A stretch of DNA of 64,000 nucleotides from a bacterium (GTDB lineage Bacteria > Zhuqueibacterota > QNDG01 > JAFGCO01). Shown here piece by piece: positions 3,988-24,352 of the stretch. The notes beneath the pieces are model-generated. The model was not told the DNA's origin, ran no database searches, and saw only the letters and a program-made list of their open reading frames with translations. The stretch lies in NCBI GenBank assembly GCA_016932575.1, contig JAFGCO010000065.1, positions 20,465 to 84,464 on the forward strand. Direction: 5' to 3'. A program made the translations under genes and the position numbers. How positions within the stretch are numbered: position 1 is the first letter of the stretch; every line of letters starts with the position of its first letter.

Positions 3988-5136
3988 TTAAAATTCATAT
4001 CGGAATAAAATCGCCACATCCATTCCTTCGATATTTAATTTTTTTAAATCCTCGGCACTGATTCTTTGACCAACCATATATTTTATATAAAATTCAATGA
4101 ATGTGTTATATGAAAATCGGTATTCTCCCCCAAATCCTCCTCCCAGTGCTTTGGCCCATGATAATCCTGCTTCGTTTTCACCGTAAAAACGTCCGTCAAC
4201 TAAAACATTTGCACCGCCGCCCTGTATGTGAAAAGCCTTCCATATAATATTGAAATCCAGCTTCGGTGAGTTGCTGTTAAAAACTTCTTCCTTGAATAAC
4301 TGGCCCTGAAGCGCATAATTATTCGTTTTAGAACGATAATTTAAAAGTGCCCAGAGATAATATTCATCATAGCGATAAAAATAACCCAGATTGATTGTCA
4401 TTTTTGTCCCTGACTGAAATACATATTGAGGACTGTTGTATTTGTCTTTTTGGTAAAATGTAAAAATACCATCCAGCATGACCTTCATATCTTCATTAAA
4501 ACCCAGGTCGAGGCCAAGATGCACATTGGTTTCATCTCCCGGATCATAATAGCCATCGACTTTATTTCCCTGATTGGCCCAATTTGCGCTGTAAATGGGA
4601 ACAAACTTTCTTCGATACAAATAAGAGGCGCCGCCGCCAATGACGACATTATCTGAAAAGGAATGCGCAATAAGGGCACCGATTTTACCCTGAAATCCCT
4701 GACCATAGACAGGGGTTTTAAAATTGAATATGTTGAGATTTAAATGGGTTGATAAATAATATTCCTTATAATTCAGTCTTGTCTTACCCAGCGGAACACC
4801 AATCCCTCCTATGATAAGCAGCCGATTATCCCATAAAAGCAGATTTCCCTGCAGGTAGGGATCGGAAAATCCACCCATACTGGTATGACGCATATCCCAA
4901 TCTGTACGTGCATATGCATAATCAAAATTTAAATTAAAATGACTGTTAACCGGAATGACCATATGCACAGGAATGGTCACCTGCATAATGGGTTTTTCAA
5001 TGATAATTTCTTCCCGCCATATTTGCAGACAGGGGCCTGTTTTAATAAATCCCTTGGGAGCGCTTGGAATAATTTCTTCCTGCGCTAAGACATTTTGAAA
5101 CATGAACAGTATGATTAAGATGCAAATGCGTTTCAT
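3988..5136 (-). CDS. Outer-membrane beta-barrel protein, paralog A (cassette partner of giant protein A).
   Basis: Start refined to MKRICILIILFMF (AAGGAAA ribosome-binding site 7 nt upstream). The signal peptide ends ...NVLAQEE. Alternating amphipathic strands run throughout and the C-terminus is '...FRYEF' (terminal aromatic). It shares motifs with 14179..15279: 'DGRFYGENE', 'YDPGDE(T/F)NV', 'G(V/L)P(L/T)GKT.L', 'P.YGQG'. Confidence 0.55.
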   Translation of the reverse strand: MKRICILIILFMFQNVLAQEEIIPSAPKGFIKTGPCLQIWREEIIIEKPIMQVTIPVHMVIPVNSHFNLNFDYAYARTDWDMRHTSMGGFSDPYLQGNLLLWDNRLLIIGGIGVPLGKTRLNYKEYYLSTHLNLNIFNFKTPVYGQGFQGKIGALIAHSFSDNVVIGGGASYLYRRKFVPIYSANWANQGNKVDGYYDPGDETNVHLGLDLGFNEDMKVMLDGIFTFYQKDKYNSPQYVFQSGTKMTINLGYFYRYDEYYLWALLNYRSKTNNYALQGQLFKEEVFNSNSPKLDFNIIWKAFHIQGGGANVLVDGRFYGENEAGLSWAKALGGGFGGEYRFSYNTFIEFYIKYMVGQRISAEDLKKLNIEGMDVAILFRYEF

Positions 5137-5179
5137 CTCAATTTTCCTTGTCTTATAAACGATGGTCATCGTTAAAATG

Positions 5180-8100
5180 CTATTTTAAAAGAATCATCTT
5201 TCGTGTCGCTACTTTTCCTGCGGCTTTCAACTTATATATATAAACTCCAGAAGCCAGCTTCATGCCCTGGTCATTCGTTCCATCCCATATCACCTCGTGG
5301 TGACCGGTTCCACAATCGTTTTGAGCGATCTTTTTCACCTGCTGCCCCAATGCATTGAAAATGATGATTTCCACGTCTGATTTTCGAGGCAGACTGTAAT
5401 AAATCTTAGTCGCGGGATTAAATGGATTGGGCGAATTGGGATAAAGCTTAAATACGGCCGGTTCCAGTGAAATGCCATCACGATGCTGCTGAACAAAGGC
5501 TTCATTTCCGGCAATAATTTTAAAGGAACGCCTGGTGCTTTTCTTTTTGGTATTAATTGTGTAAATCTTTTTCATCTGGAGATCCGCAGCCACTTCATTT
5601 TCGGGATCAATTAAATAAGCCTGCCAGTTGTCCGGCATGGCCTGGATGAATTGCCAGGAAATCTGATACTTATGATTTTTTGACGGACAGTCCACATCAA
5701 TATTCCAGACATGCCCCTCTGAATTGCTTTTACGAATATCAGCCATATATTTTCCCGGCTGATATTCCCATTCTGAATGATCAAAATAAAGCGATGTGCA
5801 TTCAAAAAAGGAAGGCGGTGGTTCCGGTCGATCATAAGGATCGTACATGATATGGGCTTTCGGCCGCATTCCGGCATAATTATAGACATCGCGGCCGTAG
5901 TCATCAGATGCAGAAAATTGAATGAGCCAGGCATTTTCTTCCAGATTTTCCAATAACCGGTATTCAGAAACCTTCGATTTGCTCAGGGAGGATTCACGAG
6001 GCTGAATGTAGAGATATTCAGATTCATCCCCGGAATGATATACCCAGTATCCTACCCATGGCTCCAGAACCTGAATATCAGGTTCATAACCGTCTTGTCC
6101 CCATTCATAAGGCGGTGTAATAGTGCTGGAAGAGACAGCACAATCCGACCATTTTACATTAAAATTATAGGGATTGCCGATCATATTCCAACCTGGTGCC
6201 AGCTCTTTTTCAAAACTGTTTGCTGTAGAAACAGTCTTGCCGGGGCGGAGCTGGAAGTTCCGTTCAATATTACTGACAAGCCAGTATGCCCGTCCGGGAG
6301 GCAATGAGAAAAATACCGCATTGTCGTCAATAATCTGATTACCTTCGCCTCTTTTGGCATATTCAATATAATCATCATGAAAAGGATCCAAAGCATACAG
6401 GGGGCTTTTTGTGGGATCCCACCAGAATAGGCGCCATTGAAACGGATCATACTCAGAAATAGACACATCCACAAATACAGTATCCGGATCGTAGGTATCC
6501 AGTGAAAACGGAACAGAAAACATAGCAGCAAGCTGATATTTTCCCAGTTCATTTCTCTGTGCCGCGTAATGCATTTGCGTGATCATAGTCTCAAATCGGA
6601 TCTGCATAGAAAGCGGATTGTGCACTGCATCCACAACCGGATATGTATATGTCCGTTGCGTTTGCGATACCATATGGATATAGTATTCGAGGCCGCGTAA
6701 TGTCACACTGTCCGCAGGAATATTGGCCTTAAAAACAATATCACTTTCAGGAAAAGCAGATATCGAATGGTATTCTTCCATACCCGCCTGCCTGTAAAAT
6801 ATCTTTACTGATGACGGATTGACTTCATAAGGCACTTCGATGGCTATAGTGACCGGATCTCCCGCTTTTGGATGGGCTGGTGTCGGAGTGAGTATTTTTA
6901 TCCCTGCATCATGAGGCATATTAAAACTCCAGACTTCACGATCAATGTTTGAAAATCGGAATTCATCCAGATATCCCTGAAAATATCCGGAATAGCCTCC
7001 GGTTTTTCTCTCTGCTGCGCCAAGGAGCAGCGGCCGGACTGCATCTGCTTTTGGCTGGCCAATATCCCACTGTTTATTCCAAATTTCGATCCAATCAATA
7101 TACATGCTTCCGGAACGGGTATGTGAATCATATACAAAAGCCATATGGTGCCAGGCATTATCATTGACACGGGGGCCTGCGCCATCGAAGCCATTGACAA
7201 TTAAATGCCCGGTACTTCCAATCTTTATAACGAAATCACCCTGCATCAAAGAATCCTGATATCCCTTGCCTATTAAAACCTGTGAAACCGTATCGGTCCT
7301 GAAATAGCACTCTAAAGTAATACTTTCCCTGCTCAAATCATTCTGAAAAATATCCTTCCCGGGAATTTCAATGCGATCATTGTATCCGTCAAACCGGACA
7401 CCGGCTGTATAAAATCCCTTATTGGGTTCGATCCGTGCGCCATTCCACAGAAACCCCTGAAATTTATTATCTGAGTAATCAAGCACTGTATCACCTCGAG
7501 ATTCATTAAAATGATAAAGCGCCAATGTATACCGATCGGATGTATATTCTGCTGCACCCGGATTCTTGTAACCATATCCTTCTAAAGACAGGTTCACAGT
7601 GGGTGAATTCTCTGCATTACTGTGCAATGTAAACTGATATTGGTAATTAATCGCTTCAAGTACCGGTTTAAATGAAATTGGCAGATACATGGAATCAAGA
7701 CGATCCACTGAGAATGACTTTAAACTGTCCGGTATGCTGAAAATAGTATCCGCTCCTGTAACATGATGTATTTTCAGCGACTGATCCCCAAGATTCTTGA
7801 TCAGTACATCCAGGGTGCGTGTAAAGCCCAATTTCACCCCTTCATAATACAACTGATAGGAGGATACGTTAATTTGAGGCGGAACCACATTCAGATCCCA
7901 CGATTCCCGATTGATATTGGAAAAACGGATTTCATCCACGTACCCATAGAATTGCCGCGCATTGTCATAATCCGCTCCGAAATGGATTGTCCCGTCTCCA
8001 AGATCCAATAATTCACCCAAAAAAGCCAGGCTGTCTTGTACAATGCCGTTGATCATAAACCGCACCCAGTTGGCATCAAGAGAAACAGACACGTGATACC

Positions 8101-11100
8101 ATTGATTGACATCGATCTCATCCAAAGCATACCCGTGCAGGCTGAAACCATCGTTTTGCTGATTCCAGATTCGAGCCATAATTTCAGGGCTTTCACCGCT
8201 GGTAAAAAGAATTTCATACTGTTTCACGCCATCGGTTTCCTGCTGTACAAGAATGCCCCCATTGTCAGGTTTCACTGAAAGATTAAACCAGGTTTCAACA
8301 GTAAAATAAGAACCGACCTTTCCCGTAACTGCGGTTCCGGGAATCTCAAGAGAACCTCCGTAAAATCGAAGTCCCTTCCCAAATCGGCCGGTATCCGACA
8401 GTGCAACATTGCCAACCAGCTTGCCATGAATGCCATTTCCCGACGAATCCGCCAGAGTCTCCCCGTCCTCTCCAATTTCATCCAGATGGAAAAGTGCGAG
8501 AGTAAACTCATCTGAAGAATACGCATCCTGGCTGATCTCCGGAATGCCTTCGCCATATAGATTGACATTCCTTTGCGGCCAAAAAGGATCGTTTGTAAAA
8601 AATGTGATTTTCCCTGAGTGTTCACCCAGATCATGAGCCGTATATGTAATCCGCATCCTCCGGCTCTCTCCGGGAGCCAGTTGAAATCCGGACAGGTCCG
8701 TTTTAAAATAGTCATCCAGATCGATCGCCACCGTATCAACCACCAGTGTATCGATACCCAGATCATTGTTCACAGTTAATTCGAGAACCCGGCTCGATCC
8801 CAGATATACTTCCCCAAAATTTAATTTGGAGGAGGATACGGTGATCCTTGCCATATCCACATTAAATTCCCAGGTTTGCCTGCCAATGCCGGAAATTCGG
8901 ACTTCGTCAATATTGCCATAAAATGCATTGTTGGTTATCCAGCTCCCTCCAACCAGCAATGAAAGCGTATCCATAATGGCATGGGTTTGTTCATTCGCAA
9001 TGGTACCGACGAATCCGGCTTGATCAATTTGGTTTCCGTTGATATAAAGAAACAGGCTGTCCACACGCTGAACCAGTGCCACATGATACCATTGATTGAT
9101 TTGAATCGGACCCAAGTCTGCGCTATTCACTTCAAAAAAATCCTGGGATCCATTGTATATTCGTCCAATCAGTCTTCCACCATTGTCTATATACAGATCA
9201 AACTGATTGGCTGACGCACTTCCCCGGCGCATTAAAACACTCTGCGTAAATGGAAATTGATCCATCCTGAACCAGCTTTCAACAGTAAATCCGCCCCACT
9301 TTGATTCTAATACATCATCCGTCTCCGGACGAACAACCATCCGTTCATCATCCGCTTTAAATTTAAGAGAGTACCCTTCTCCAAATTTCTTCTGATCACC
9401 GTCATAACTCACCCCTCCCTGAAACGCACCGTCCATTCCCTGACCGGAACTATCGGAAGCTCCAGAAAGTAAATAGTCGTCGAAATGATATAATCCCAAC
9501 GTAAAATGATCTGTCTCATACCGGCCTGCTTTAAAACTGCTGACAGCTCTTCCTTTAATCGGTACGTTAAATGTAGGATAGGTCGGATCTGAATTGACAA
9601 TGGTAATGATATGTGAATCTGCATGATCCGATTCCTGCTGTGGTGAATAAGTAATCCAAAAAGTAGTAGACGTATTGGGAGATAAGGATATGGGGTAACT
9701 GGCATCAATATTCACTGAACTGTAATTGGAATATATATTTTGCACAGTAAGCAACTGTGAGCCACGGTTTCGGATAGTGACAGGTACTGTGCGGCTCTTC
9801 CCAAACAATACATTACCAAATTCGATTGTCGAAGGCTGGAGTGATATTCTCGCACGGTTTACATGAAATTCCCACGGCTGCCGGTCAATGATTGAAAGAC
9901 GAATTTCATCAATCAGGCCGTTAAATGGCAAATATCCTGTCGAAGTTGCACCGATGGCCATGGGTTCTGAGTTTTGCAAACGCAATTGCCCGGATACATA
10001 TGTCGCTGATACTTTATCACCATTTAAATACAGACGCAGACTGTCTGTGTCCCAGGTCAAAGCCGCATGATACCATTGACCGACATTCAGGATGGACATC
10101 GAACCGGACGTCACTTGATGTACTGTGCCATTTTCATCCCAGACACTTCCTATCAATCCTTTTTCGTTTTGATTGTCCAATGCCAGTTCGACCTGGCGGC
10201 TGGTGTCATTGCCGCGGCGCAGCAGGATGGCATATGTCTCAGGTTTTTGTGCGATATTAAACCAGGCTTCAATCGTGAAAGGAGTATCATAAAAATTCAG
10301 CGCACTGTGATACGGAATGTATATATAATCCGATTCCCCATCCAGATCAAGCGCTTTATTCAATCCGGTACGTGAATCCGCCTGATCAGGAGCTCCTTCG
10401 ACAAGGGCATCTTTTTCATAAAGCGATGCATCCTCAACCGATGTAGACACATCACCGTCATCCATATGATAAAGACCGACTGTAAATTCATCCCGCTCAT
10501 AAGGTCCCTCACTCACCGGCATGGAAATGCGTCCCTGCAATGTTATCTCAACCGTTGATTCATCGGGATCATTTGTGTATATATACGCCTTATCCACCTG
10601 GGTCGGATCAGCAATATCGGCTGTTGGAGAAAAACGAACCACAATCTGATGTGTATCTTCGCGGGCAACAGAAAAGGCGGTTTGACTAAAGGAAAACAGC
10701 GGGTTCAGCCACTGGATATTCTCAATCCGAAGCTGAGTGCTCCCCTGATTAATAAATCTTAATATTCTCGGTCTGGATTCTCCCGGCGGAACCGGTCCGA
10801 ACTCCAAAGGGCTGGAAGGAGTAATTGAAATATCCGGCTGAACGGCACTGCTGAATACATAGAGCCCGTCATTTCCGTCCGCCATGACAACATACCCCTT
10901 ATAAGGAGTAATGTCAAGAGCCAGAGGCGTCTCCTGGGTTTCATAATAACCTGTCTTTAAAAACACACCCGGCGTCGAAAAATCATATACAAGCAAGCCA
11001 AATTCTGCATCTGTAAGATAAATTGTTTTCTCTTTAACATAAATATCTGTGATCATACCGCCGGTAGCCACCCGGTTGACACTGTTGGTTTGTATATTCC

Positions 11101-12745
11101 ATATAAGAAATCCGTATCTGCCATTAGCAACAAACACTGTATCGCCGACAATATCCAGGCTGAAGGCTTCGATGTTATCCGTTAATGAATTGATCTGAAC
11201 AGGGGGGCCCGGCAGATCGATAATATTATACACATACACACCGCTGGAATCTGCCAAAAAGGCTCGATTGTCATGAACGATAATTTTCCTGGCAGATCCC
11301 GGTGTATTAATTTCATGCTTTTTTGTAAAATTAAAACCACTGTGCTCAATGACCATCATTCCAAGACCGCCGTAGGCCAGGAGTGCATAACTGCTGCCGT
11401 CTTCATTATAAATGGCCGCATCGTAACATGTATCGGTTTCGGAATTCCAGTATTGACCATACGATTCTGGAGAAGCAGGATTATCCATATACACAACATG
11501 CAGACCTTTCGATCCGTCCGCCAGGAATGCGAAACCGTCCTGAACCTGAACGCTTCTGACTTCACCGGGTGTATTGTATTCACTCAACAGTTCCAAATGA
11601 TCGAGAGTCTCTTCGTCATAATTCAGGTCAAATATTTTAAGTCCGGCATGCCCTGCTGCCACGTAAGCATAATGCTCATCCGTATCAACGTCATAAGCCA
11701 GATCAGAACTGGGCAGGATGCTCTCTATACTGATTTGGGAACCTTCCTGGACATCAGCCAGAACCAATCCGTTAGGACCGTCACATACATAAGCCGTATC
11801 TCCTTCCACCCAAATACGGTTCGAGATACCGTCAGTATCCAGGGGCGGAAATGGCAGAATTTGATTTTCAACAGTGACGGGATTCGAAACATCAATCGGT
11901 CCCCACACTCCATCATGTCCGCATACAATATATATATCACTTCCGGAATGACGCATATCAATCACATTCAGGGGTTGCGAATAATACCATCGGCCTTCTT
12001 CTTTTAAGTCCGAAGGATCCTGAATATCAATGATTCTTAATCCTCCCCACCCTGTTGCCGCATAGGCCATGCCGCCGATTGCAATCACATTCTGTGCCTT
12101 TGGTTCTGGCAATTGATAGCCGCTGAAAACAGAAGCAAAATCCAGTGAATCGAGCAAAACCGGGGTTTCTTTGACTTTTGTGCTAATCATAAACAGGCCG
12201 GATATGTCGGCAGCGACCAGTGCGAGCGTATCACGGACCACCCAGACATCACGGGCAGGCCTGCTGGTCGCATATCTTCCCTGAATATAAGGATCATATA
12301 TATTATTGACATTGATAATCAACATTCCCTGGGAGCCCGCAGCCACATATGCATGTTTGTAATTTTGACTCACGCCGGAAGCATATCCCCAGGTTCCAAT
12401 TTCACGAATACGGGTCAGCGTCTTGTTTATTGTATCCATCTGTACGATCTGAAGACCGGCATGACCGCAGGCTACATAAATATCCTGTAAATTGGAAACC
12501 ACCCAAATATCCTGTACAGCAGCTGGTAAAAGCAATTCCTTATAAAACTTCATTTCATGATTATCATGTTTATCCAGATATACCTGCAGATAGGCACCGT
12601 TGCCAACAAATGTAAAATCACCGCGCCGGAAAATGGCCTCACACCGGCCTTCAGCCCATCGGGCTTCACGTTCCACATTATCTTGACCCAATGCCCATTG
12701 AACACACAATGACAGGCTTATAAGTACGAAGATTTTTTTAAGCAT
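5180..12745 (-). CDS. Giant secreted surface protein A (~2521 aa). It has a signal peptide, an LVIVD-repeat beta-propeller, four [ASH/HYDIN-like Ig + LamG (Laminin_G_3-like)] modules, a conserved pre-CTD module and a type A T9SS C-terminal sorting domain.
   Basis: Start refined to the ATG ([21 protein letters not shown]) with GAGGAG 10 nt upstream; the track start is a TTG. LVIVD-like repeats: '[14 protein letters not shown]', '[16 protein letters not shown]', '[15 protein letters not shown]'. Ig-like modules: 'LEFGPV..', '[23 protein letters not shown]', '[18 protein letters not shown]', '[14 protein letters not shown]'. LamG modules: 'QWYHAALTW...LYLNG', 'QWYHVALVQ...LYING', 'QWYHVSVSL...FMING', 'AWHHMAFVY' plus 'IDE(V/I)R(L/I/F)S' motifs. 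CTD: '...[38 protein letters not shown]...[23 protein letters not shown]' (Por_Secre_tail/TIGR04183-like). Confidence 0.8.
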   Translation of the reverse strand: [2521 protein letters not shown]

Positions 12746-12790
12746 AGGTTGTGTTCTCCTCAAAATTCAAAACCATTATCCCGCCTATAA

Positions 12791-14164
12791 TCATTGTTCC
12801 GGTGGGCTCGGGGGTTCGGATAACATGTAAGGAATGATGGGAGCAGATGAAAAACTGGCTTCAACAAAAGGATTCCGAGAGTTCTGGCCGGGTAGTATCT
12901 GATTATTTTGCTGAACGCCCAACCATTGCAAACGGTTGTACGGGCTGACCAGGTCTGGTGGAGGCATAAAAACCAGTCGCGCTCTTCCCTTGGCTGTCGT
13001 TTCAACCATATGACGCACCTCGTAACTGACACGCATCTGATTATAATTGTGTGTGACTTCCCAAATATCCGGATTCACCATATAATCCCGTGCAGCAACA
13101 AAATCACCGTCATATTTTATTGCCCGATGAAAATAATTCTGGGCCAGTCTAAAACTGCTTTGATCCATCGCATCAAGGCCCTGGCAGTAGCTTAGAAACG
13201 CCGCTATATCCTCAGTGGGTATCTCTAAAAGTTCATTCCGCTCCTGATCTGTAATAAATATTCCAAAAAAATCAGAAATTCGCAGAGCCAATTCTTTCTC
13301 AATCTTGAAAAATCTCGCAATATTACCATCAAAATTCATGGTGGAGGCGATTGTATTGTTATCAGCCGCAACAATTTCAGCATCCAGTGTCATCTTTAAA
13401 TTATCTGTGATCAGGTATGATCCCCGAATGAGATACCGAACACCTAAGAGACGTGCAACTCTCTGCTGAACCTCCGGTTCACGAACGCTCATCGGATCAA
13501 GTCCCAACTCAGTCATCAAACTGTTGAGCAATGATCGATCAACCACAGTCAGATTCGATATGCATGAAAGATCCCGGACCAACAGATCAGCCAGACCTTT
13601 TTGCAATGGCGCCCACTCCGGATCATCACTCAGATTCAGAAAATAAGTTACAGCAACGCTGCTCTCAGGAAATTCATCAAATCGCCTGATATCTTCGCTT
13701 TCCATTGCTTTCTGCAATTCCCGGCGCACATGAACCTGTTTGATCCAATCGAGGCGTCCAAACATAAAGTAACGATAAGGATCATTTTCATTCAATGACG
13801 GGTAACTTTTATACGTGGCGATGGCAAGATCTTCCTGTCCCAAGGCCTCCTGACACATGGCTAGAAAAAATGCGGCTTTTCCATGTGCTGGATCCTTTTC
13901 CAAAACAGTTTTAAAAATCTTTGCAGCCGAGTTGTAACTCTGCTTATGCCAGTAGGCCACTCCAATACCGGTCACTGCCTCCCGATCGTACATGATAAAC
14001 CGTTTTCCGTCACGAATACGAGGCTGCAGCATTTTCAGATAATTCCGAATGGCCTGGTCATATTCTTTCTGGTCCAGAGCCTCTTCTGCTGCCTGGTATC
14101 TTGAAGTGGCGCATCCTGCCCATAAAAGGCAGAATATCAGGATGCTTGCAAGTTTCCATTTCAT
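12791..14164 (-). CDS. Lipoprotein A: an N-terminal TPR region plus a CsgG/LpoB/TolB-N-like 'AVxxFxN' domain, with a Pro-rich C-terminus.
   Basis: Lipobox 'LLWAGC|ATS'. TPR-like 'QKEYDQAIRNY...'. Motif 'SVAVTYFLNLSDDPEWAPLQKGLADLLVRDLSCISNLTVVDRSLLNSLMTELGL'. C-terminus '...SEPPSPPEQ'. It is paralogous to 22076..23518. Confidence 0.65.
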   Translation of the reverse strand: MKWKLASILIFCLLWAGCATSRYQAAEEALDQKEYDQAIRNYLKMLQPRIRDGKRFIMYDREAVTGIGVAYWHKQSYNSAAKIFKTVLEKDPAHGKAAFFLAMCQEALGQEDLAIATYKSYPSLNENDPYRYFMFGRLDWIKQVHVRRELQKAMESEDIRRFDEFPESSVAVTYFLNLSDDPEWAPLQKGLADLLVRDLSCISNLTVVDRSLLNSLMTELGLDPMSVREPEVQQRVARLLGVRYLIRGSYLITDNLKMTLDAEIVAADNNTIASTMNFDGNIARFFKIEKELALRISDFFGIFITDQERNELLEIPTEDIAAFLSYCQGLDAMDQSSFRLAQNYFHRAIKYDGDFVAARDYMVNPDIWEVTHNYNQMRVSYEVRHMVETTAKGRARLVFMPPPDLVSPYNRLQWLGVQQNNQILPGQNSRNPFVEASFSSAPIIPYMLSEPPSPPEQ

Positions 14165-14178
14165 AAAAACCTCTGCAT

Positions 14179-15279
14179 TTAGATTCTAAACTTCAAACTT
14201 GCCAAAATATCGATTCCTTCCACATCAATTTCCTTAAATGCCTTGATGCTGCCCATCAAATATTTCACATTGATTTTTCCTGTAACCGTCGGGCTGAATT
14301 GCTGCTGAGCTCCCATGCCAAAGCCGTAAATTGAAGCACTTCCGAACCCGTCTTCATTTTCGCCATAAAACCGGCCGTCCCACAACACTGAAAGCCCACC
14401 CCTGGGCCATTGTTTAAACTGCCATAATCCATCGGTCTCAAATTGGTCGCCGATCGTTTTTTTCGAAATTTTGGTCTGATTGGGAACAAACAGATCGTTT
14501 TTTCCCCTTTGGCGGAATCGCAGGGCGCCATAAATAAATCCGGATGTCATTTTGTAGGCAATTGATGTATTTATCAGAATTTTGTCTCCTGCATCTATAA
14601 AATCCTCACCCCCCAATTGATCGGCACTGTATATGGAGTAAACAATATCAGTGCTCCATTTTCCCTGTTTTCCGAGAGGCACACTGATTCCGGCAACCAC
14701 ATTGAATTCATCTCCGGGATCATACTCCTGATCAATATATTTCACCCATTGATAAGGGGACTTGATCATATAATTGAGCCCCAATCCGATTATCGAGCCT
14801 CCCTCCATGGGAAACGCCATTCCCCCGCCAGCTTTAAAGATCAATCCCTGACCATAGGAAGGCAGTCGGAATTTAAGAGCATTCTCACTCAATCCCTGCA
14901 CCAAACCGAATTCTTCAGCACTCAGTTCTGTTTTACCTGTGGGCAGGCCGATCCCGATATTGAACATAAAGCGTTCGTTTGCTGCAACATAGGTCGTTCG
15001 AATCCAGGTGTCTGACAGTCCGGAAATTGTGCTGTCTTTGTATGAAGCGGTTGCCGGTGAATTTGAAATGTTTAAATACCAGTTGGGCGAAATCGGATAA
15101 AAGCAGACAATCGGTGCGACTGTCTGACGCAGCGGATCATCCATATATTCATTTGTCCACTGTTGATAAGACAAACCGGTCGAGACAAATCCGCCGCTCT
15201 TCGGAGGAATCAACCCTTCTATTCCCAGAAGATAAGCCGGAATCAATATTAATAAAAATCCTTCTTTAAATTTATTCAT
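14179..15279 (-). CDS. Outer-membrane beta-barrel protein, paralog B (cassette partner of giant protein B).
   Basis: Start refined to MNKFKEGFLLILIPAYLLG (AAAGGA ribosome-binding site 7 nt upstream). C-terminus '...LASLKFRI'. It shares 'DGRFYGENEDG', 'YDPGDEFNV', 'GLPTGKTEL', 'PSYGQG' with 3988..5136. Confidence 0.55.
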   Translation of the reverse strand: MNKFKEGFLLILIPAYLLGIEGLIPPKSGGFVSTGLSYQQWTNEYMDDPLRQTVAPIVCFYPISPNWYLNISNSPATASYKDSTISGLSDTWIRTTYVAANERFMFNIGIGLPTGKTELSAEEFGLVQGLSENALKFRLPSYGQGLIFKAGGGMAFPMEGGSIIGLGLNYMIKSPYQWVKYIDQEYDPGDEFNVVAGISVPLGKQGKWSTDIVYSIYSADQLGGEDFIDAGDKILINTSIAYKMTSGFIYGALRFRQRGKNDLFVPNQTKISKKTIGDQFETDGLWQFKQWPRGGLSVLWDGRFYGENEDGFGSASIYGFGMGAQQQFSPTVTGKINVKYLMGSIKAFKEIDVEGIDILASLKFRI

Positions 15280-15308: not shown

Positions 15309-15584
15309 TTACCCATATTTTTCTGGATAAAGAAGGGAATCAGTCAATATAAATATAGGTAAAATAGCAAATGACAAAACAACAATTCCAAATAAAGACC
15401 AAATTCTAAAATCCAATGCACAAAAGCCATTCATGAAATCGATGATAACGCTTGAAAACAAAACAAGAAGCCAAATATGAATGATCGGGCAATCTGATAT
15501 CACCAAAACGCAAATAAAATTTTGTTTGTCATTTGGATTTTTGTATTTATCTGTCATTTGGATTTTGTTTTTTTTATTTTTCAT
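15309..15584 (-). CDS. Possible small two-helix membrane protein (91 aa) between giant B and OMP B. It may equally be non-coding spacer.
   Basis: The ORF has two hydrophobic helices (HIWLLVLFSSVIIDF; LFGIVVLSFAILPIFIL). Its 5' end overlaps a 17-nt direct repeat, cassette A has no counterpart (10-bp gap there), and I see no clear ribosome-binding site. Confidence 0.2.
   Translation of the reverse strand: MKNKKNKIQMTDKYKNPNDKQNFICVLVISDCPIIHIWLLVLFSSVIIDFMNGFCALDFRIWSLFGIVVLSFAILPIFILTDSLLYPEKYG
15527..15568. repeat. Direct repeat TGTCATTTGGATTTT(T)G ×2, 26 bp apart, in an AT-rich stretch between giant B and OMP B.
   Basis: Read directly: '...tttgTTTGTCATTTGGATTTTTGtatttatcTGTCATTTGGATTTTGtttttttt...'. 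Confidence 0.5.
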
Positions 15585-15652
15585 ATAATATTGTTATTTT
15601 TCCCCGTCTGTCCAGTGATAAATTAAAGACATAGCTAAACGAGTGACAGGGA

Positions 15653-18600
15653 TCATTGAATCAGAATCATTTTTCGAATGGCTACACGACCCGGATACTC
15701 CAGCCGGTAAAAATAAACACCGCTGGAAACCCGTGTTCCGCGATCACTCACACCCGACCAGTGCAATTCATATTCACCTGAAGTCTGTTCTTCATTAACC
15801 AGTTGAGTGACCCTCTGTCCAAGCATATTAAATATGCTGAGACGGACACGCCCGCTTGCCGGCAGCGTGTATCGGATGGTGGTTTCCGGATTAAACGGAT
15901 TCGGATAATTCTGATAAAGATGAAATGCAATGGGAGCAATGACATTTTCCACCTGCTTTTCCACATATTCCGGCAAACCTGCAATACACTGAAATTTGCG
16001 GACATTCGGTGTATCCTTTCCGGTCACAATGGCATACTCATTTTTCGATATCATGTCGATAACCACGTTCTTATCTGGATCCACGAGCCGAACCTGCCAG
16101 TCTTCCGGCATGGATTGATGCAATATCCATTCGAATTCAACTAAGGATTTTTGCAGACGCGTCTCAACAACAACGTTCCAGGTGTATCCTTCATGATTGA
16201 TCTCTCGTATGTCGGCAGCATAGGTTCCGGGATGTTGTTTCCAGTCCGAATGATCAAAATACACGGAAATATAGTCTCCCATGGGCGGCGGTTCTGCACG
16301 ATCCCGAAGGTCCCATGCTTCCATTGCATCATGCCGGACGCCAAAAAAATTATCCAGGTCTTCGGCTGTTTCCGTTCTCGCTGAAAGCTGCCATACCCAG
16401 TCTGTTTTTATCATTTCATAAACAATGCTTCCCCTGACAGGTGCTTGTTTTGTCAAAGCTGCCGGTTCCCTTGGCGGAACATACAGATCCTGATAGGTCT
16501 GTGAAGCATTGTATATCCAATACCCGCCCCACGGTTCAAATACGGGCCAGTCGAGCCTGTATCCCTTGCCGTCATAATAATACAGGGTCTCAAGAGAATC
16601 AGAAGTAAGCGCACAGTCGTTCCAGTTCACCTGAAATGCAAACGGAGAACCGATCATATTCCACTGCGGCCGGATATGATACCGGCAGGGTGTTTCCGTG
16701 GATACCGAATATCCGGCACCGACATTCCAGCTTTTTTCACTTGCGGATATCAGCCAGAATGCCCTTCCCTGATCAAACGAAAAAATAAGGCTGTCCGCAT
16801 AGGAAAGGGTGTCGTCATACTCGCAATACATGGTATCTTTCCAGGTCAGGCAGCGCCATTTATACGGATCCCATGATCCAAGGTCGTCTTCCAGCACCGC
16901 TCCGGCATTGACATCATCCAGGTCTCCGGGAACGGATATCATGGTATATTTTTTTCCCGGCAGGGTTGTATCAGCCATCAGTGCGTTAAATCTTACCTGT
17001 TTGGTCAACGGTCGGTTCACAGGATCATACAGCGGGTGAGTATAGGTCTCACCGGAAACCGTCATTTCTACATAAAATTCCAATCCTCGTTCCGTTACTG
17101 ACGGTGCCGGAATCTCGACACTGTACTGGGTGCCGGTATCATCCCCTGCGACAGGTGTGGCCTGAAGGGTCTGATAAGACCGCTTTCCGCCCTGCCTGTA
17201 ATGCAGCCATACCTCCCTTCCGGCTTCACCCTCTGATGCAGGCAGGGTGATATCAACACTCTTAGGATTATTTTTTCTTGCATTTCCACTGATGGAGGCA
17301 AAAATACCTGTTCCTTTGAAAATCAAATCCCATGGCTGGCGCGCGATACTGGATATCCGGATCTCATCCATCTGCCCCTGGAAATATCCGGTTCTTTGGT
17401 TGGCTGCTGTTTCTCGAACACCGAAACACAGAGGACCGGAATTGCTGATATCTGTGTCGCCGGCTTCCCATTTACTTTGTATCTGGATTTCACCATCCAG
17501 ATACAGAGTGCCACGATGATTGGTCGTATCGTAAACAAAGGCCACATGGTGCCAGACTCCGTCCGCCACATAAGCGGTTCCCTTGCCAAAACCATGAAGA
17601 GACAACAGACCATTTGTATCGATGGACAAACCGTAATTGGCACGGTTATCTCCGCCCCGATACGGATCTTTGAAGAAAATCACCTGATTAAGTGTGTCTG
17701 TCTTAAAAAAACACTCGATGGTAAATGGTTCTGATGCCATATCGAAACGTAATCCTTCCGCATCATTCACAATGGCATAATCACTGAAGCCGTTAAATTC
17801 AAGCCCGCCGTCAAAATAGGCAGAGGCTGTCCGGCTGCCGTGCAGTGTGCCATTATATTTACCGGTGGCGTCTGCAACTGTATTGGCCGCGGCATCGCAA
17901 TGATAGAGCGCAATCGTGTAATCATCCAATGCATAAGGTGCTTTTGGACGGTAATCAATCCCGGCCGCAGTTAATACGATCTCATAAACAGGCATGTCCG
18001 GGTCATTACTGTGAATGCGAAGTGTGTCCTTTACGCTGACTGCTGTTTGGGGCACGAACCGTACTGTAACAGTAATGGTCTCATTCACCGTCAGTGTGTC
18101 GTGATCCGGACTGATTTCAAAAACGGATGTTCGGGTTGTCATACTGTTGATTATGAGCGGAAGAGCGCCAAAATTGGAAATTGCAAAGGTCCGGCTGCTG
18201 TCGCTCTCGATAAAAACGGTTCCAAAATCCAGTTGTTTGGTTGCAATTGCCAAATTTGGAATTCCGACATTCAATTCTTCAGGCTGCCGGTCGATATTTG
18301 AAAACCGGATTTCATCGAGATACCCGTTGAATCCACGGCCTGATCCATAAGCTCCGCCCATGGCCAGATCTGCCTTCGAACTGCGCAGGTTCCCGCTGAA
18401 GTCCGTTGAATCCACAATCACTCCATTCAGGTATAACCGTAATTTATATCGGTCCCAGGTCACGGCCATATGATACCATTTTTCAAGATCCATCTCAGAA
18501 TCAGGCGGGCCAAATAGTGAGAAAACCTTATTGTTGGCGGCATAAAATCGCACCACCAGTCCTTTCCCGGTGCTCAGCGTGTCATTGTACAGCACTTCGT

Positions 18601-21600
18601 ACTGTAAATCGGTTCCTGAACCGCGCCGGAAAAGCACATAGTCTTTATTCGCCGCCGGTTTTCCTGCCAGGCTGAACCAGGTTTCCATACTGAAAGGTGT
18701 GTTTGTATAATCGAACAGGGTATGATAAGGAATCCAAATCCAGCTGGTGTCTCCTGTGAAACGGAGGGCCGAAGCACCGTATTTTTTATAAAGTGTATTC
18801 CATGAAAGGCCGAGCCCTCGAAAATAACCGATCAGCCCGTTCCCGGAAGCGTCAGGAATCGAATCCATATCCACAGTCCCGTCCAGATGCCACAGACCGG
18901 ATGTATAAATATCCGGCTCATAGGCTGCCAGACTGATGGACTGAAAACCGACGCCTGAGAGCGGAATGCGGACTGTCGGTCGAAACAAATCGCTCGAGTG
19001 AAGGGTCAGCGTATCCCGAAAAGTCCGGACAGCTGACGGTGTAAATCGGACCCAGATTGTACGGCGTCCGTCAGACGTTAATTCGAATTCCGTGTCCGAA
19101 ATGTCATAGTGATTTGTTTCTGTAAACAGACTGTCGACCGTCAGGGGGCCTTCTCCGTTGTTTCTTATTGTCATATAATAATATTTGGATTTTCCCACAT
19201 AAACACTTCCGAATGCGGCACTGCTGACTGTCGTTGAAATACGTCCCGTGCTGATATTAAACTCCCACGGCTGGCGTTCCAATGCAGACAGCCGCATTTC
19301 ATCCATAACACCGTGAAAAGGATGAGCCAATCCAGCATCGTTGCCAATAGTCGCCGATATCACACCTGAAGGATACGGAACAGTCATCTGTTTCTGATCT
19401 TCAAGATTGCCGTTTAAATAAAGCTTGAGTGTACCACCCATGGTCAGTGCCGCATGATACCATTGGTCCCTGACCAATGGTGTTTCTGTATTTGACAGAA
19501 GCGTATCGATTTTCTGAACACTTTGTGATGACAGTCCCATCAGACGATTTTTATTCACGCTTAATTCATAGATAATGCGGTCCCCCTCTGCCAGCCTGAA
19601 CAGGACAGCGGTTCCTTCCGGAATGGCATTGAGCTTAAACCAGGTTTCAATGGTAAATCCCTGCCATTTGTCAAATGAAGGGAACTGACCAATGGATTCC
19701 AGATTGATATGGACAATATCGTTTTCATTAAAAATAAGCCCCTGATCAAACTTCCCGTCATCCGCTTTGGTGACCGTTGCACCGGTTACCGTACCATCCA
19801 TCAGGCCATAGTCCGATTCATCCTGCAGAGTCGCGCCATTCAGTGCATCCATATGGTACAGTGCATAGGCATAATAATCAGGAGAATAAGCGGCCAGGGG
19901 AGTGGGCTGAATTCCCGTTCCGAGAACCGGAAGTGAATGCGGACTGTTGACCGCATCGGTCTGCAATTTCAGTGTATCATAAATTGTAGTATAAGCGGCG
20001 GGTGTAAATCGAACAACAATATAAGCGGTTTCTCCCGCTGAAATCCATTGAGGCAGGTACAGAGCAGAAAACCGTCCTGTGTTGCAGGTCAATTCGCTGG
20101 CATACACCGCTGTGGAGCCGGTGTTGCGGACAATCATGGACAAAGTCCGGCTTTTCCCCAGAACAACGTTTCCGAAATCCAGTGAATCGGCATCGACCTG
20201 CAGCTCTCCGGTAAAATCCGCCTGAAGATAATAGACACCGCCTTCACCGTCGGCCACCACCACAGTATCATCAACCACATCCACTGCATAACTGGTGCCG
20301 GCTGTGTGATACGATCCGACCGCATCAAGACTTTCCGGATTCGTCAAGTCAATCAGCCGAATGGTTCCCTGCCCGTCGGCCACGACTGCGATATCGCCGT
20401 GAAAATCCACATCATAGGCGTACCCTTCCGTATCAATTTGATCCGAGGGCGTGATATTTTCGGTATTTGAGACATTTAAACCGAGAAGCCCGTTGGATCC
20501 GTCGGCCGCATAAATGATATTAGCGCCGGCTGCCGGAACGCCAATTGATTGAATTTCACTCTCATTGTCATAGGTGCCTGTAATTGTGTTTGTATTGATA
20601 TCGAGCACCTTTAAACCGTCTGTACCTGCAGCGATATAAACGCGGTTCGACCGTTCATCAGCAGTCACACCGATGGCGTCAAATCCATTGATACCCTCAA
20701 TCAGTCCTTGATCGACCGGTTCAAGACTGTTGCTTATATCCACAACACGAATACCTGAAGTGCCTTCGGCCACATAGGCATTGTCGCCAAAAATCGTGAC
20801 ATCAAGCATTTCGTTCGCAGTCTCAACCGTTGTAATCTTCGTTGCAGTAGCGGGATTAGACACATTATAAAAAATCAAACCGCCTGTACCATCGGCAACC
20901 ATCAGAACATTCCCGTCGAGAGCCAATCCCATGGCATTCTGGGTGTTCCTGTGCGCATATATCGTGATTTTTTCATCATCAAGATGCGCATGATTGAGTA
21001 TCCATAATCCGGATTCACCCCCCGCTACAAAAGTGGCCTCAGGGCTGAAAAGAACATCCATCGCCTGACCGCCGGATGTGACAGAATCAACCAGGTCAGG
21101 AGGAGCAACTGCCACATCAATTTTTTTCAAACCTGAATTTCCTTCAGCCAGATAGACATAATTTTGATCAATATACAGAGACAAGGCGTCTCCGCCTGTT
21201 TCGCGTGATGTTTTTTCCGTCATGGTGGTTAAATCGATGACCCTCAATCCGTATCCCTCATCAGAGAGATAGGCAGTTTCCGCGCTCACATCCACCGCTA
21301 TATCACTGAGGCTGACTATCTCGGGCTCTGCGATCCATTGACCGGCCACGTTGATATTTTCCGGATCAGTGATATTAACCGCCAGAACACCTTGATTTCG
21401 ATCAGCGACAAAAGCAGTGGTTCCGCGGACTGAGACACCATAAGCGGATCCTGGAGTATCCGCCGTATCGAGCGCTGCAGGACTGGAAGGACTGGATATG
21501 TCAACCGCAACCAATCCCAGGGCATCCACCGCCAGATAGGCATAATCACCCGAGACGGCCACATCCTGTACAGGAGATGAAAACTGTAAATATCCCGCAG

Positions 21601-22039
21601 GATCCAGTGTGTTTTCAATCACTTCGATGATATAGAATCCGGACTCGCCGTCCGCCACATAGATACAGCCATCTTGATAGGCAATCCGGCGGGCCGAGCC
21701 TTCCGTATAATAATGCCCGAGTTCGTAAGGTGAAGTAATGCTCGACCGGTCCAGCATATAAATACCGATGTCTTTGACTGCCACATAAATTTTAAAAGAT
21801 TGATAATAAATATCCTGAATCAATCCGGGAAATTCATATCTCGAATAACGGCCATCCGGATTGGTGGCATCCAAAATATCGAGATAGCTGCCGTTGCCCA
21901 TGTATAAAGCATCCGCAGTGGCTACGACCGATCGGCAGGGACCACTGGCCCATCGGGCGAGTAAAGATAAATTATCAACCTGCTGCGCCAGCAATGACAT
22001 TGAAAACGCTGATAATACAGCAATTATTTTCCTTTTCAT
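15653..22039 (-). CDS. Giant secreted surface protein B (~2128 aa), paralog of A. It has an LVIVD-repeat propeller, three [ASH-Ig + LamG] modules, a conserved pre-CTD module and a type A T9SS CTD.
   Basis: Start refined to ATG ([20 protein letters not shown]) with AGGGAG 5 nt upstream; the track start is a GTG. Ig-like: '[26 protein letters not shown]', '[26 protein letters not shown]', '[26 protein letters not shown]'. LamG: '[10 protein letters not shown]..LYLNG', '[10 protein letters not shown]..LYLNG', '[10 protein letters not shown]..LYLDG' plus 'MDE(M/I)R(L/I/F)S'. Shared pre-CTD motifs: '[10 protein letters not shown]', 'GYWIY', 'DHSDW'. CTD: '[36 protein letters not shown]...[23 protein letters not shown]'. 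Confidence 0.8.
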   Translation of the reverse strand: [2128 protein letters not shown]

Positions 22040-22075
22040 AATCACTCCCTATAGGAATTATGAACTCATTGTTTA

Positions 22076-23518
22076 CTATGGACGATGCGGTGGCGGAGGC
22101 GGATCCGGCAAATACCACGGATCAACCGGATAATGAGTATTCGGCGGATCCGGAGGATCTGGCAGTCCTTTTGTTAAATCGGGAAACAGATCCGCCAGTT
22201 CACCAATATTGATTTCCTCGAAAGCTTCGCGAGAATCACTGCCGGGGATAAATCCGGCATCCAGATACCACCCCATCTCCTGTAATCGATCAACAGGGCC
22301 GAGATGCACCCATGCATCATATCCCACATCTGTTGTTTGCGTCGACGGCCCGATTTTCAACAGCGTAATCATTTTCGTTTGCAGGGCCATCCAGTCTCTG
22401 TTTTGTGTTGCTTTGAAAACATCTGGTGAAGCCATGATCTGATCGGCTAATATAAATCCGGGATCCAGCTTTACCGCGCTTGCCAGGTACTTTTGAGCCG
22501 TATCATACTGATCGTGGTCAAGAGCATACAGAGCGTATGCGTAATTCAGGAAGGCCTGGAAATTGCGTGTCGAAGGCATTTTCAAACGGTTCATTTGAGA
22601 AGCTGTCAACTGAACACCCAAATCACTTAACACATTCAGAACAATTTTCTTTTGGAGCACAATAATATTCTTCAATTCTCCCTCAATATCCGATTCTTTG
22701 ATATGGCGGACACCGGTAAAGGTCAACGTACGTTGATCAATTTTCAGAATTCCGGAACCCCTCATCTCAATTTTTCCCTGAACCACAGTACCGACATTGA
22801 GCAATCTTTGCAGCTTTTCAACATGATCGATGTTCTCAAGATCTCGCGGACTCCATCCCAGGGCCTGCATTAACTGAACAGTTTTTTCTCTGGGCACCAC
22901 CTGAAAACCGCCAATGCGATTAAAATCATGAATCACCAGGCTGGCAATGCCTGCACTTATAATGGTTCCTTTTAAATCTGAGCCGGCATAATGAAAATCC
23001 AGAACAACCATGCGCTGACTTGAAAAATCCGCCTGATCATCGGGTCCGCGTGCAGCCATCTTTTTCGCCTCTTGAATGTACTGCTGCTTATTTAAAAAAT
23101 ACAAACGCCCTTTCATCGCATCCCTCGCGGGATCGCCTTCGTTCAATGCCTTATAATTCGCATAAATCGGAAGGGCCAGTTTCGATTTTCCCTGTCGTTC
23201 ATAGCACATCCCCAGATAAAAATAGGCGGCTCCGTAGGAAGGCGATTTTTGATTGACATAACGAAACACTTTGATTGCGCCATCCAGCATATTCATGTTT
23301 AAAGCGGAAATGCCAATTTTTGTCATGATCTCCGGTGAATATCGGATATATCGACTTCCATCTTGTGAACGAACTTGTAGAGAATTGATATAAGACTGCA
23401 TTGCCTTTTGATACTCTTTTTGACTAAAATAGGCATCACCCTGAGTCTGTTTAGATAGACCCGTGCATCCGAGCATCAAGGCAATTAGGCCTATACCTGC
23501 CCATCGCCAAATTATCAT
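22076..23518 (-). CDS. Lipoprotein B: TPR plus a CsgG/LpoB/TolB-N-like domain and a poly-Pro C-terminal tail.
   Basis: Lipobox 'ALMLGC|TG'. 'QKEYQKAMQSYINSLQVRSQDG' parallels 'QKEYDQAIRNYLKMLQPRIRDG' of lipoprotein A. 'RMVVLDFHYAGSDLKGTIISAGIASLVIHDFNRIGGFQVVPREKTVQLMQALG'. C-terminus 'PDPPDPPNTHYPVDPWYLPDPPPPPHRP'. Confidence 0.65.
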   Translation of the reverse strand: MIIWRWAGIGLIALMLGCTGLSKQTQGDAYFSQKEYQKAMQSYINSLQVRSQDGSRYIRYSPEIMTKIGISALNMNMLDGAIKVFRYVNQKSPSYGAAYFYLGMCYERQGKSKLALPIYANYKALNEGDPARDAMKGRLYFLNKQQYIQEAKKMAARGPDDQADFSSQRMVVLDFHYAGSDLKGTIISAGIASLVIHDFNRIGGFQVVPREKTVQLMQALGWSPRDLENIDHVEKLQRLLNVGTVVQGKIEMRGSGILKIDQRTLTFTGVRHIKESDIEGELKNIIVLQKKIVLNVLSDLGVQLTASQMNRLKMPSTRNFQAFLNYAYALYALDHDQYDTAQKYLASAVKLDPGFILADQIMASPDVFKATQNRDWMALQTKMITLLKIGPSTQTTDVGYDAWVHLGPVDRLQEMGWYLDAGFIPGSDSREAFEEINIGELADLFPDLTKGLPDPPDPPNTHYPVDPWYLPDPPPPPHRP

Positions 23519-23641: not shown

Positions 23642-24352
23642 TCACTCCATTTGCCGCTTTTTTTCTGCAATACGCAGAATTGCATCTTTCGCTTGTTGAA
23701 ATTCAGGCTCGATTTCCAGAGCTTTTTTATATTGTGAATAGGCTTTCTGAAGCTGATTCTGATCCTCAAAACTCAGACCTTCTGAAAACAGAACCACCGC
23801 CTCAATCTTCAGGGTCTTTCCTGAATCCAACATTTTACTTTCTGACTTGGTTAACCGCACAGAAAGGTCATCCAATAATTTCTTGCTCAGCTTTTTAATC
23901 AAAGACAGAATTTGCCGGGTTTTTCCTGTAGTTTCTTCTGCCTTGACCACCGATCCGGTCTCTACTTCTACAATGCGCAGATCGATACGGATTTTATCAC
24001 CGGGCATCACCATATAACTGCCAAATACCAAATTCTTTGCACCCAGCATTTTACCAACCTGAATTGAAGTTGATTCAGAAATCAGTCCCGACTGCACCAT
24101 TTTCAATTCATCCAGCATCTCCTGCATCCGCCGGCGTTCTACCATTTTGACCGATTCGATCCGACTTAACTCGGTGATCATCATCTCTGCCAGGCCCTGA
24201 GATAACGCGGCATAAGCATCCGCGTTCATAAAAGACCTGTTTTCGAAATCGAGAACTGCCAGAGTGATCGTATCACCATAAATGGCCAAACCGGCGAACA
24301 ATAAAAAATTGACAATCAGTATGCGGAAACAGAATTTCATAATCGCTTTCAA
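23642..24352 (-). CDS. Secreted CsgG/LpoB-like domain protein with a C-terminal TPR-like helix pair. It is the first gene of the super-operon.
   Basis: Signal peptide, then 'ITLAVLDFENRSFMNADAYAALSQGLAEMMITELSRIESVKMVERRRMQEMLDEL'. C-terminus 'YSQYKKALEIEPEFQQAKDAILRIA'. Confidence 0.55.
   Translation of the reverse strand: MKAIMKFCFRILIVNFLLFAGLAIYGDTITLAVLDFENRSFMNADAYAALSQGLAEMMITELSRIESVKMVERRRMQEMLDELKMVQSGLISESTSIQVGKMLGAKNLVFGSYMVMPGDKIRIDLRIVEVETGSVVKAEETTGKTRQILSLIKKLSKKLLDDLSVRLTKSESKMLDSGKTLKIEAVVLFSEGLSFEDQNQLQKAYSQYKKALEIEPEFQQAKDAILRIAEKKRQME

Follow-up and report, generated by a model that had tools for sequence, protein, structure and literature searches.

The stretch of contig JAFGCO010000065.1 analyzed here (64,000 nt, hereafter the window) carries a cluster in which two predicted outer-membrane proteins, OMP A and OMP B, are encoded downstream of giant proteins ending in a type IX secretion system (T9SS) C-terminal domain (CTD) of type A. 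To which family do these barrels belong, and what may they do for the giants beside them? An earlier note on this DNA had left two answers: either PorV/FadL- or PorP/SprF-like barrels, that is, cargo-specific T9SS components, or a new family co-evolving with the giants. The profile searches, structural models and comparisons of related loci described below favor the second answer. The barrels form a large family new to curated databases that adjoins type A cargo and co-diverges with it, and they may serve this cargo as carriers or anchors.

The barrel family and its predicted fold

Both barrel genes were found as the earlier note had placed them. The starts it used correspond to the deposited annotation and give normal signal peptides, with longer in-frame starts lying at 5169 and 15309. 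The products of 382 and 366 amino acids (aa) are identical to deposited proteins of an unclassified "bacterium" metagenome-assembled genome (MAG; accessions in Table 1). The view that they are diverged paralogues sharing several motifs proved right, the two being alignable end to end by BLASTP (27% identity, E 9e-48) and both containing DGRFYGENE, YDPGDE(T/F)NV and P(V/S)YGQG. In the alignment of 54 family members these motifs fall on invariant or near-invariant positions (P142, G145, Q146, G147, P199, G200, R316, Y318 and N321). The C-terminal aromatic residue ascribed to both proteins is present only in OMP A (...RYEF); OMP B ends with Ile and has Phe at position -2 (...KFRI).

Each of the 54 aligned members was scanned against Pfam and NCBIfam. 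OMP A and OMP B matched no Pfam or NCBIfam model at E ≤ 0.1, and none of PorV, PorP/SprF, PorQ, PorT and PorG was recovered at E ≤ 1 from any of the 54 sequences. Only weak generic hits were obtained: OMP_b-brl in 14/54, Phenol_MetA_deg in 6/54, TDE1717 in 5/54, DUF6850 in 3/54 and Toluene_X in 3/54 (best E 0.021, sub-threshold). The family profile searched against all PDB sequences gave nothing at E ≤ 10, the chains 6h3i_F and 1t16_A included. The hallmark of SprF is a periplasmic C-terminal tail with a conserved Cys-X-Cys (PMC12635249). No such tail was found among the family members, where no alignment column has Cys in more than 6/54 sequences and the proteins stop at the last strand. PorP/SprF identity was rejected on the lack of a PF11751/TIGR03519 match, the missing Cys-X-Cys tail and cargo that is not of type B, and PorV/FadL identity on the lack of a profile match, the 16 predicted strands and the missing N-terminal hatch. 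Pfam detected no POTRA, Omp85 or ShlB domain, and the mature protein, consisting of the barrel only, leaves no room for POTRA. The first of the two answers was not supported, and the profile searches proposed in the note returned no strong hit to a housekeeping porin or transporter family.

The family is large. An exhaustive profile search collected 1,450 clusters at 50% identity with E ≤ 1e-3, and 519 with E ≤ 1e-30, nearly all of them single-domain proteins of 355–395 aa. Members were found only in lineages of the Fibrobacteres–Chlorobi–Bacteroidetes (FCB) group, namely KSB1/Zhuqueibacterota, Calditrichia, Ignavibacteria/Melioribacter, Rhodothermales/Salinibacter and unclassified MAGs (36 loci, one genome per species). 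The searchable literature on T9SS with CsgG/TPR proteins, with LVIVD repeats or in these phyla yielded no description of the family or of the gene arrangement. By these comparisons, the barrels are a family new to curated databases.

AlphaFold2, run with the 54-sequence alignment, predicted a confident beta-barrel (mean pLDDT 82.9, pTM 0.79; confidence scores of the program). In the model, turns of 2–4 residues alternate with long loops, giving 16 strands with both termini in the periplasm. From the range of 14–16 strands given by the earlier note, the barrel itself was retained and 16 is the best reading, while 14 was dropped. The modeled barrel begins about 10 residues past the signal peptide, the mature protein being barrel only and ending at the last strand. 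Conservation is highest in loop L3, modeled with 35 residues (114–148) and a helix (mean 0.67, 14/35 positions at ≥80%, including GLPTGKT and P.YGQG), followed by the kinked strand beta4 (SG.SDT). L4 is closed by YDPGDE, and the stretch DGRFYGENE covers L7 together with the top of beta13. Since L3 and beta4 are conserved and no position of the periplasmic turns reaches 80% conservation, the constraint on the family probably lies in the lumen and on the outer face. The barrel strands also carry many conserved charged residues.

Structure comparison gave no close relative. The top solved matches in Foldseek were general porins and FadL with TM-scores of 0.33–0.49, the 16-strand porins being BpsOmp38, PorB, OmpM1 and the Rhodopseudomonas blastica porin. 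A TpsB ranking was not reproduced by Foldseek. As the two structure-comparison methods disagree and identities are only 7–13%, the model is best taken as a generic barrel of 16 strands to which no solved structure is specifically related.

Linkage of the barrels to type A cargo and lipoproteins

The type A CTD attributed earlier to the two giants was borne out. Both flanking giants exceed the curated TIGR04183 cutoff of 23 at their extreme C-termini (34.3 bits for cargo A and 41.7 for cargo B), the type B CTD (CHU_C) being matched in the cargo only below threshold. The giants have signal-peptide-like N-termini, LVIVD repeats, several Laminin_G_3 domains and choice-of-anchor D/ASH Ig domains, and no two-partner-secretion (TPS) domain was found at their N-termini. 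The conserved part of the cargo is a module of about 460 aa, always placed directly before the CTD of about 80 aa and without a Pfam match at E ≤ 1. At least 526 relatives of it were found in metagenome contigs, including many smaller proteins that lack a barrel. It is an undescribed and widespread cargo module.

Related loci (labeled L001, L013 and so on) were then read from the barrel side. A cargo gene with module and CTD lies directly upstream of the barrel gene, on the same strand and with a gap of -4 to 220 bp, in 26/33 informative genome loci, which span KSB1/Zhuqueibacterota, Calditrichia, Rhodothermales and unclassified FCB MAGs. The last ~540 residues of this upstream cargo are homologous to the window giants, the N-terminal part varying from ~600 to 3,100 aa. 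The remaining seven of the 33 barrel copies directly follow a TPR/CsgG-like lipoprotein gene. Despite truncation of contigs, one or both lipoprotein types are present in 59/79 barrel loci, and the commonest orders are CARGO-OMP(-csgG) and (csgG-)TPRlip-CARGO-OMP. The TPR/TolB-N-like lipoproteins, absent from the earlier note, are more constant partners of the barrel than the cargo is.

The neighbors vary with the lineage. In Ignavibacteria the order is TPR lipoprotein, barrel, a lipoprotein with fn3/BNR or Fib_succ_major domains, and then a CsgG-like–caspase fusion, CHASE2, TPR and papain-like protease genes. These extras suggest a proteolytic or signaling layer on the same barrel module. In L018:8669-18867, and likewise in L020 and L013, the fusion protein has 675 aa and combines CsgG-like, Glucodextran_B and caspase (Peptidase_C14) domains, the papain-like protein belonging to Peptidase_C1. 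L030 of Calditrichia has, after the barrel, genes for two proteins (FG-GAP or other) that carry type A CTDs. Altogether, the constant core is the barrel with TolB-N/TPR (lipo)proteins, and the variable neighbor is nearly always a predicted surface protein. A separate observation concerns L039:352-1491. The gene there, flanked by the CsgG/TPR gene on one side and that of the giant cargo on the other, encodes a protein with the FGE-sulfatase fold, which is also that of PorK/GldK.

The trees of barrel and cargo agree closely. Across 26 cassettes the Mantel correlation was 0.92 between barrel and module and 0.89 between barrel and CTD, and the neighbor-joining trees of barrel and module were almost congruent. 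Both trees contain an A clade (window A, L001, L002, L004, L014 and L015) and a B clade (window B, L006, L012a and L016a), whose members coexist in the same contigs or genomes. Such congruent and coexisting clades imply that the cassette was duplicated as a unit before the organisms diverged and was never reshuffled. The co-divergence of OMP and pre-CTD module, which the earlier note had named as a point to check, was found in both the correlation and the A/B split. It supports co-inheritance and is compatible with co-adaptation, and is not by itself proof of interaction. Together with the size of the unannotated family and the adjacency of the genes, it supports the second answer, namely that these OMPs are a new family which co-evolves with the giant type A CTD proteins.

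The lipoproteins of the cluster probably act in the periplasm. The 457-aa lipoprotein has a conserved lipobox (G17, C18), and its AlphaFold model (pLDDT 82.6) shows a TPR part, an alpha/beta domain, a second TPR part and a disordered tail. It resembles YbgF/CpoB in its TPR and TolB in its N-terminal domain. A full-length CsgG domain, transmembrane hairpins included, forms a 36-strand pore. Here the match to Pfam CsgG was confined to the profile's soluble N-terminal part; a CsgG pore was rejected, as the transmembrane-hairpin part is unmatched and the TolB-N-like domain sits between TPRs. The model hence points to a periplasmic scaffold and not to a CsgG pore.

The tail PG.DSR...LP.PP.PP ends the TPR/TolB-N-like lipoproteins in 35/47 homologues (12791-12870 and 22076-22180, minus strand, in the window) and is highly conserved yet disordered in the AlphaFold model. 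A similar Pro-rich tail was seen at the ends of PEGA, trypsin-like and fn3 proteins that are unrelated and whose genes directly follow unpaired cargo with module and CTD (L077:2480-3277, L061:7634-8803, L083:7542-8426, L085:7558-8421 and L057:2205-3626). Such tails may serve as short motifs for docking to a shared receptor.

Layout of the cluster and its surroundings

The features of the cluster are collected in Table 1. Read 5' to 3' on the minus strand, the genes encode the 236-aa CsgG-like/TPR protein, the 480-aa lipoprotein, giant B, OMP B, the 457-aa lipoprotein, giant A and OMP A, after which an unrelated aldo-keto reductase gene follows.

Table 1. Genes and gene parts of the cluster, with positions in the 64,000-nt window (all on the minus strand; arrows mark cleavage sites)
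Feature	Position	Strand	Basis
Small secreted protein, 236 aa: CsgG/TolB-N/LpoB-like domain, then one TPR; first gene of the cluster	23642-24352	-	PF03783 (E 5.8e-18), restricted to positions 10-97 of the 210 in the profile
Lipoprotein, 480 aa: lipobox LMLG↓C, tail end ...LPDPPPPPHRP	22076-23518	-	Full-length paralogue of the 457-aa lipoprotein, 28% identity
Giant cargo B, 2130 aa: architecture as cargo A, type A CTD	15653-22045	-	TIGR04183, 41.7 bits
Pre-CTD module of cargo B, residues 1560-2050	15896-17368	-	Homology across loci
OMP B, 366 aa: paralogue of OMP A, end ...KFRI	14179-15279	-	27% identity; identical to JW835_13800
Lipoprotein, 457 aa: lipobox LLWAG↓C, TPR, TolB-N/CsgG-like alpha/beta domain, second TPR, disordered tail ...LSEPPSPPEQ	12791-14164	-	Pfam and model
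Giant cargo A, 2527 aa: LVIVD repeats, 4x Laminin_G_3, choice-of-anchor D/ASH Ig, pre-CTD module, type A CTD	5180-12763	-	TIGR04183, 34.3 bits, residues 2445-2524
Pre-CTD module of cargo A, ~496 aa, residues 1950-2445; no Pfam match	5429-6916	-	Conserved across loci
OMP A, 382-aa precursor: Sec signal peptide MKRICILIILFMFQNVLA↓QEE, predicted 16-strand barrel, end ...RYEF	3988-5136	-	Identical to JW835_13785

The gap between giant B and OMP B (15310-15652) is AT-rich and 343 bp long, most related loci having less than 60 bp at this place. It contains a direct repeat, AAATCCAAATGACA, at about 15565-15552 and 15540-15527 on the minus strand, together with the cluster's best promoter-like site on this strand (15614 to 15585). 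Scans of the cluster for promoters and terminators were uninformative, with counts near the shuffled expectation. OMP B may be co-transcribed with the downstream cassette A.

The predicted cleavage sites of OMP A (VLA↓QEE, 5079-5136) and of the giants (ALG↓QDN, 12680-12745, and LLA↓QQV, 21970-22039, all minus strand) leave an N-terminal Gln. The consensus of the OMP family also has Gln at the post-cleavage position, resembling the "Q-rule". This rule is reported to be a specific trait of Bacteroidetes that does not extend to the FCB group as a whole (PMC5837995).

Divergent from the head of the cluster, a GWxTD-domain protein is encoded at 24662-25939 on the plus strand (PF20094, E 7.9e-21). 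Elsewhere in the window, four open reading frames (ORFs) had no Pfam match at the thresholds used: 35767-36960 (minus, 397 aa), 40046-42256 (plus, 736 aa), 42256-43656 (plus, 466 aa) and 58657-59919 (minus, 420 aa). Beside the first of them lies the gene (34213-35745) of a 510-aa protein that has a FIMAH domain at its C-terminus. A 1560-aa ORF at 53966-58648 (plus) combines an AMP-binding, acyl-CoA synthetase-like domain with a C-terminal GNAT acetyltransferase domain, the ~800 residues between them being unannotated.

Possible role and comparison with known systems

Genes of the porP/sprF type are found directly downstream of the genes for type B cargo, whose carriers/anchors they encode (PMC12618676), and PorP binds the TPR lipoprotein PorE (PMC9143113). 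Because of this precedent and of the synteny described above, we favor the reading that the barrel is a functional analogue, not a homologue, of the PorP/SprF–PorE carrier/anchor that serves type A cargo. With genomic inference as its basis, we give it a probability of about 0.5. The giant would cross the inner membrane via Sec and would be taken across the outer membrane by the T9SS via its type A CTD, after which its own barrel would receive it and keep it at the surface. The ~460-aa module would probably touch the conserved lumenal and extracellular elements of the barrel (L3, the beta4 kink, DGRFYGENE and YDPGDE). One or two of the TPR/TolB-N(CsgG)-like (lipo)proteins of the cluster may organize the barrel from the periplasm.

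The relation was also examined from the cargo side. Metagenome contigs were scanned with the module alone; from the 526 relatives 80 loci were kept, and pairing was counted in 73 module+CTD genes with at least 1.3 kb of downstream sequence. A barrel gene followed within 245 bp in 37/73 of them, with a median gap of ~13 bp. In the module tree, the clade to which the KSB1-type giants and the relatives of the two window cassettes belong was paired throughout (~37 distinct sequences), and a third clade was mixed. Complete paired cargo had a median length of 2,493 aa versus 1,357 aa for unpaired cargo. The genes after unpaired cargo were heterogeneous (PEGA, trypsin-like, fn3, CHAT-TPR and metabolic genes). 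A second barrel family at this place was considered and rejected, the 404-aa barrel-like candidate in L052 being unrelated (hhalign probability 0.3%).

Several results weigh against the carrier/anchor role. Lack of an adjoining barrel was recorded for 36/73 module-bearing cargo genes, and a second module clade (~22 sequences, shorter proteins) has neither barrel nor lipoprotein within 6 kb. The four Ignavibacteria loci L013, L017, L018 and L020 keep the lipoprotein–barrel pair and have no CTD giant, and in L037 the barrel is followed by an ECF (extracytoplasmic function) sigma factor and a kinase. In the window itself, 343 bp with a promoter-like site separate OMP B from cargo B. Congruent trees can arise from linkage alone, without functional interaction. 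In the published view all type A CTDs use PorV (PMC12618676), so that a private barrel would be unneeded. Finally, physical binding of barrel and cargo, the surfaces that touch and the mode of action of the barrel (a shuttle at the translocon, a later anchor or both) are inferred from genomic data, which weighs on the same side.

The unpaired clade implies that the module is not solely a barrel-docking device, unless the orphans share a barrel encoded elsewhere; the idea of an exclusive docking device was weakened accordingly by the 37/73 count and by one entirely unpaired clade. The pairing of barrel and cargo proposed earlier thus holds in one direction. The barrel directly follows cargo in most loci, but about half of the module-bearing cargo has no barrel. 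Hence, the barrel is a clade-specific partner of the largest cargo and is not obligatory for the module.

A bolder version of the carrier/anchor reading applies to FCB lineages other than the classical Bacteroidota models. It would have their type A giants held not by the PorU/PorZ sortase and anionic lipopolysaccharide (A-LPS), but by a three-part platform, in which the module (or the conserved LPxPPxPP tail of the lipoprotein) would insert into the lumen and L3 of the private barrel and the TolB-N/TPR lipoproteins would organize the barrel from the periplasm. We regard this as a tentative and rather unlikely extension. If true, type A cargo would have a second way of attachment, one based on protein, and the platform would be a new outer-membrane complex.

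The loci with deviating neighbors raise another hypothesis, in which the barrel would join with the TolB-N/CsgG-like TPR lipoproteins in an envelope module of its own, a tether or a signaling/assembly platform. The main task of this autonomous module would have nothing to do with T9SS cargo, and surface proteins of several kinds would have been recruited to its operons secondarily. The pair is kept without a CTD giant in L013, L017, L018, L020, L030 and L037, the lipoproteins resemble YbgF/CpoB and TolB-N, parts of Tol-Pal, and the CsgG-like–caspase, CHASE2 and papain-like protease genes of Ignavibacteria suggest signaling or processing. However, the variant loci still adjoin a predicted surface or secreted protein (an fn3/BNR lipoprotein, or FG-GAP proteins with a type A CTD), the periplasmic turns of the barrel are not conserved, and barrel and cargo co-diverge one to one. 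We consider such a module unlikely.

Also improbable, in our estimate, is a porin-type substrate-specific channel constricted by L3, for which the giant, acting as a lectin-like protein, would capture a small solute or oligomer and the TPR lipoproteins would receive it in the periplasm after its passage through the outer membrane, a non-TonB counterpart of the pairs of surface binder and channel. The best Foldseek matches (16-strand general porins and FadL), the long helix-containing L3 that is most conserved as in classical porins, the many conserved charged residues in the strands and the cargo rich in Laminin_G_3/ConA-like lectin domains would all suit a channel. Nevertheless, the barrel is unrelated in sequence to every porin family, no genes for catabolism or inner-membrane transport recur across the clusters, and a housekeeping channel is unlikely to duplicate and co-diverge one to one with a particular giant.

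That the barrel is the giant's own T9SS-independent translocator, similar to a POTRA-less two-partner secretion system or to FapF/CsgG, is very improbable, since it begins ~10 residues after the signal peptide without POTRA, gives no Omp85/TpsB sequence signal and no TpsB ranking in Foldseek, and the cargo has a bona fide type A CTD at its extreme C-terminus and no N-terminal TPS domain.

Among known systems, the outer-membrane exporters of synthase-dependent polysaccharide systems (PelB–PelC, AlgK–AlgE, PgaA and BcsC) resemble the cluster in combining a TPR scaffold with a 16–18-strand barrel and an accessory lipoprotein of small alpha/beta fold. They differ in that TPR and barrel are separate proteins here and the conserved neighbor is a protein cargo, and no glycosyltransferase, synthase or polymer-modifying genes were found in the window cluster or the related loci, which contain only barrels, lipoproteins and surface proteins. 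With the general porins (OmpF/PorB/Omp32) the predicted barrel shares 16 strands, short periplasmic turns and a long, helix-bearing L3 as the most conserved element, with no porin profile match. In contrast to them it shows no sequence similarity and TM-scores below 0.5, and it is operon-linked to a giant and lipoproteins rather than being a stand-alone housekeeping protein.

PorV is likewise an outer-membrane barrel of similar size tied to type A CTD cargo. It is, however, a single general shuttle (PMC12618676) of the FadL-like 14-strand type (6h3i chain F), whereas the barrels described here are private, duplicated, predicted to have 16 strands and devoid of a hatch.

The likeness to PorP/SprF lies in the arrangement. 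A barrel gene stands directly downstream of the gene of a large T9SS-secreted surface protein, each cargo has a barrel of its own, paralogous pairs coexist within a genome, and a TPR outer-membrane lipoprotein is encoded or acts alongside. The sequences are unrelated, and the cargo is type A (TIGR04183), not type B (TIGR04131). The lipoprotein is TolB-N/CsgG-like, unlike PorE, which combines a propeller with OmpA_C, and the barrels were found in KSB1, Calditrichia, Ignavibacteria and Rhodothermales rather than among the classical models of Bacteroidia/Flavobacteriia. A cargo-linked outer-membrane partner in the T9SS is therefore already known; what is new is the barrel family and its link to type A cargo. 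It offers a handle on the display of surface proteins of 2,000–3,000 residues in KSB1, Calditrichota, Ignavibacteria and Rhodothermia, and yields a defined 460-aa cargo module and a conserved lipoprotein tail motif. Current T9SS models have one shuttle, PorV, and A-LPS attachment for all type A cargo, with private carrier barrels known only for the rarer type B. The present comparison suggests that cargo-specific outer-membrane partners are more general than thought and have arisen at least twice from unrelated barrels.

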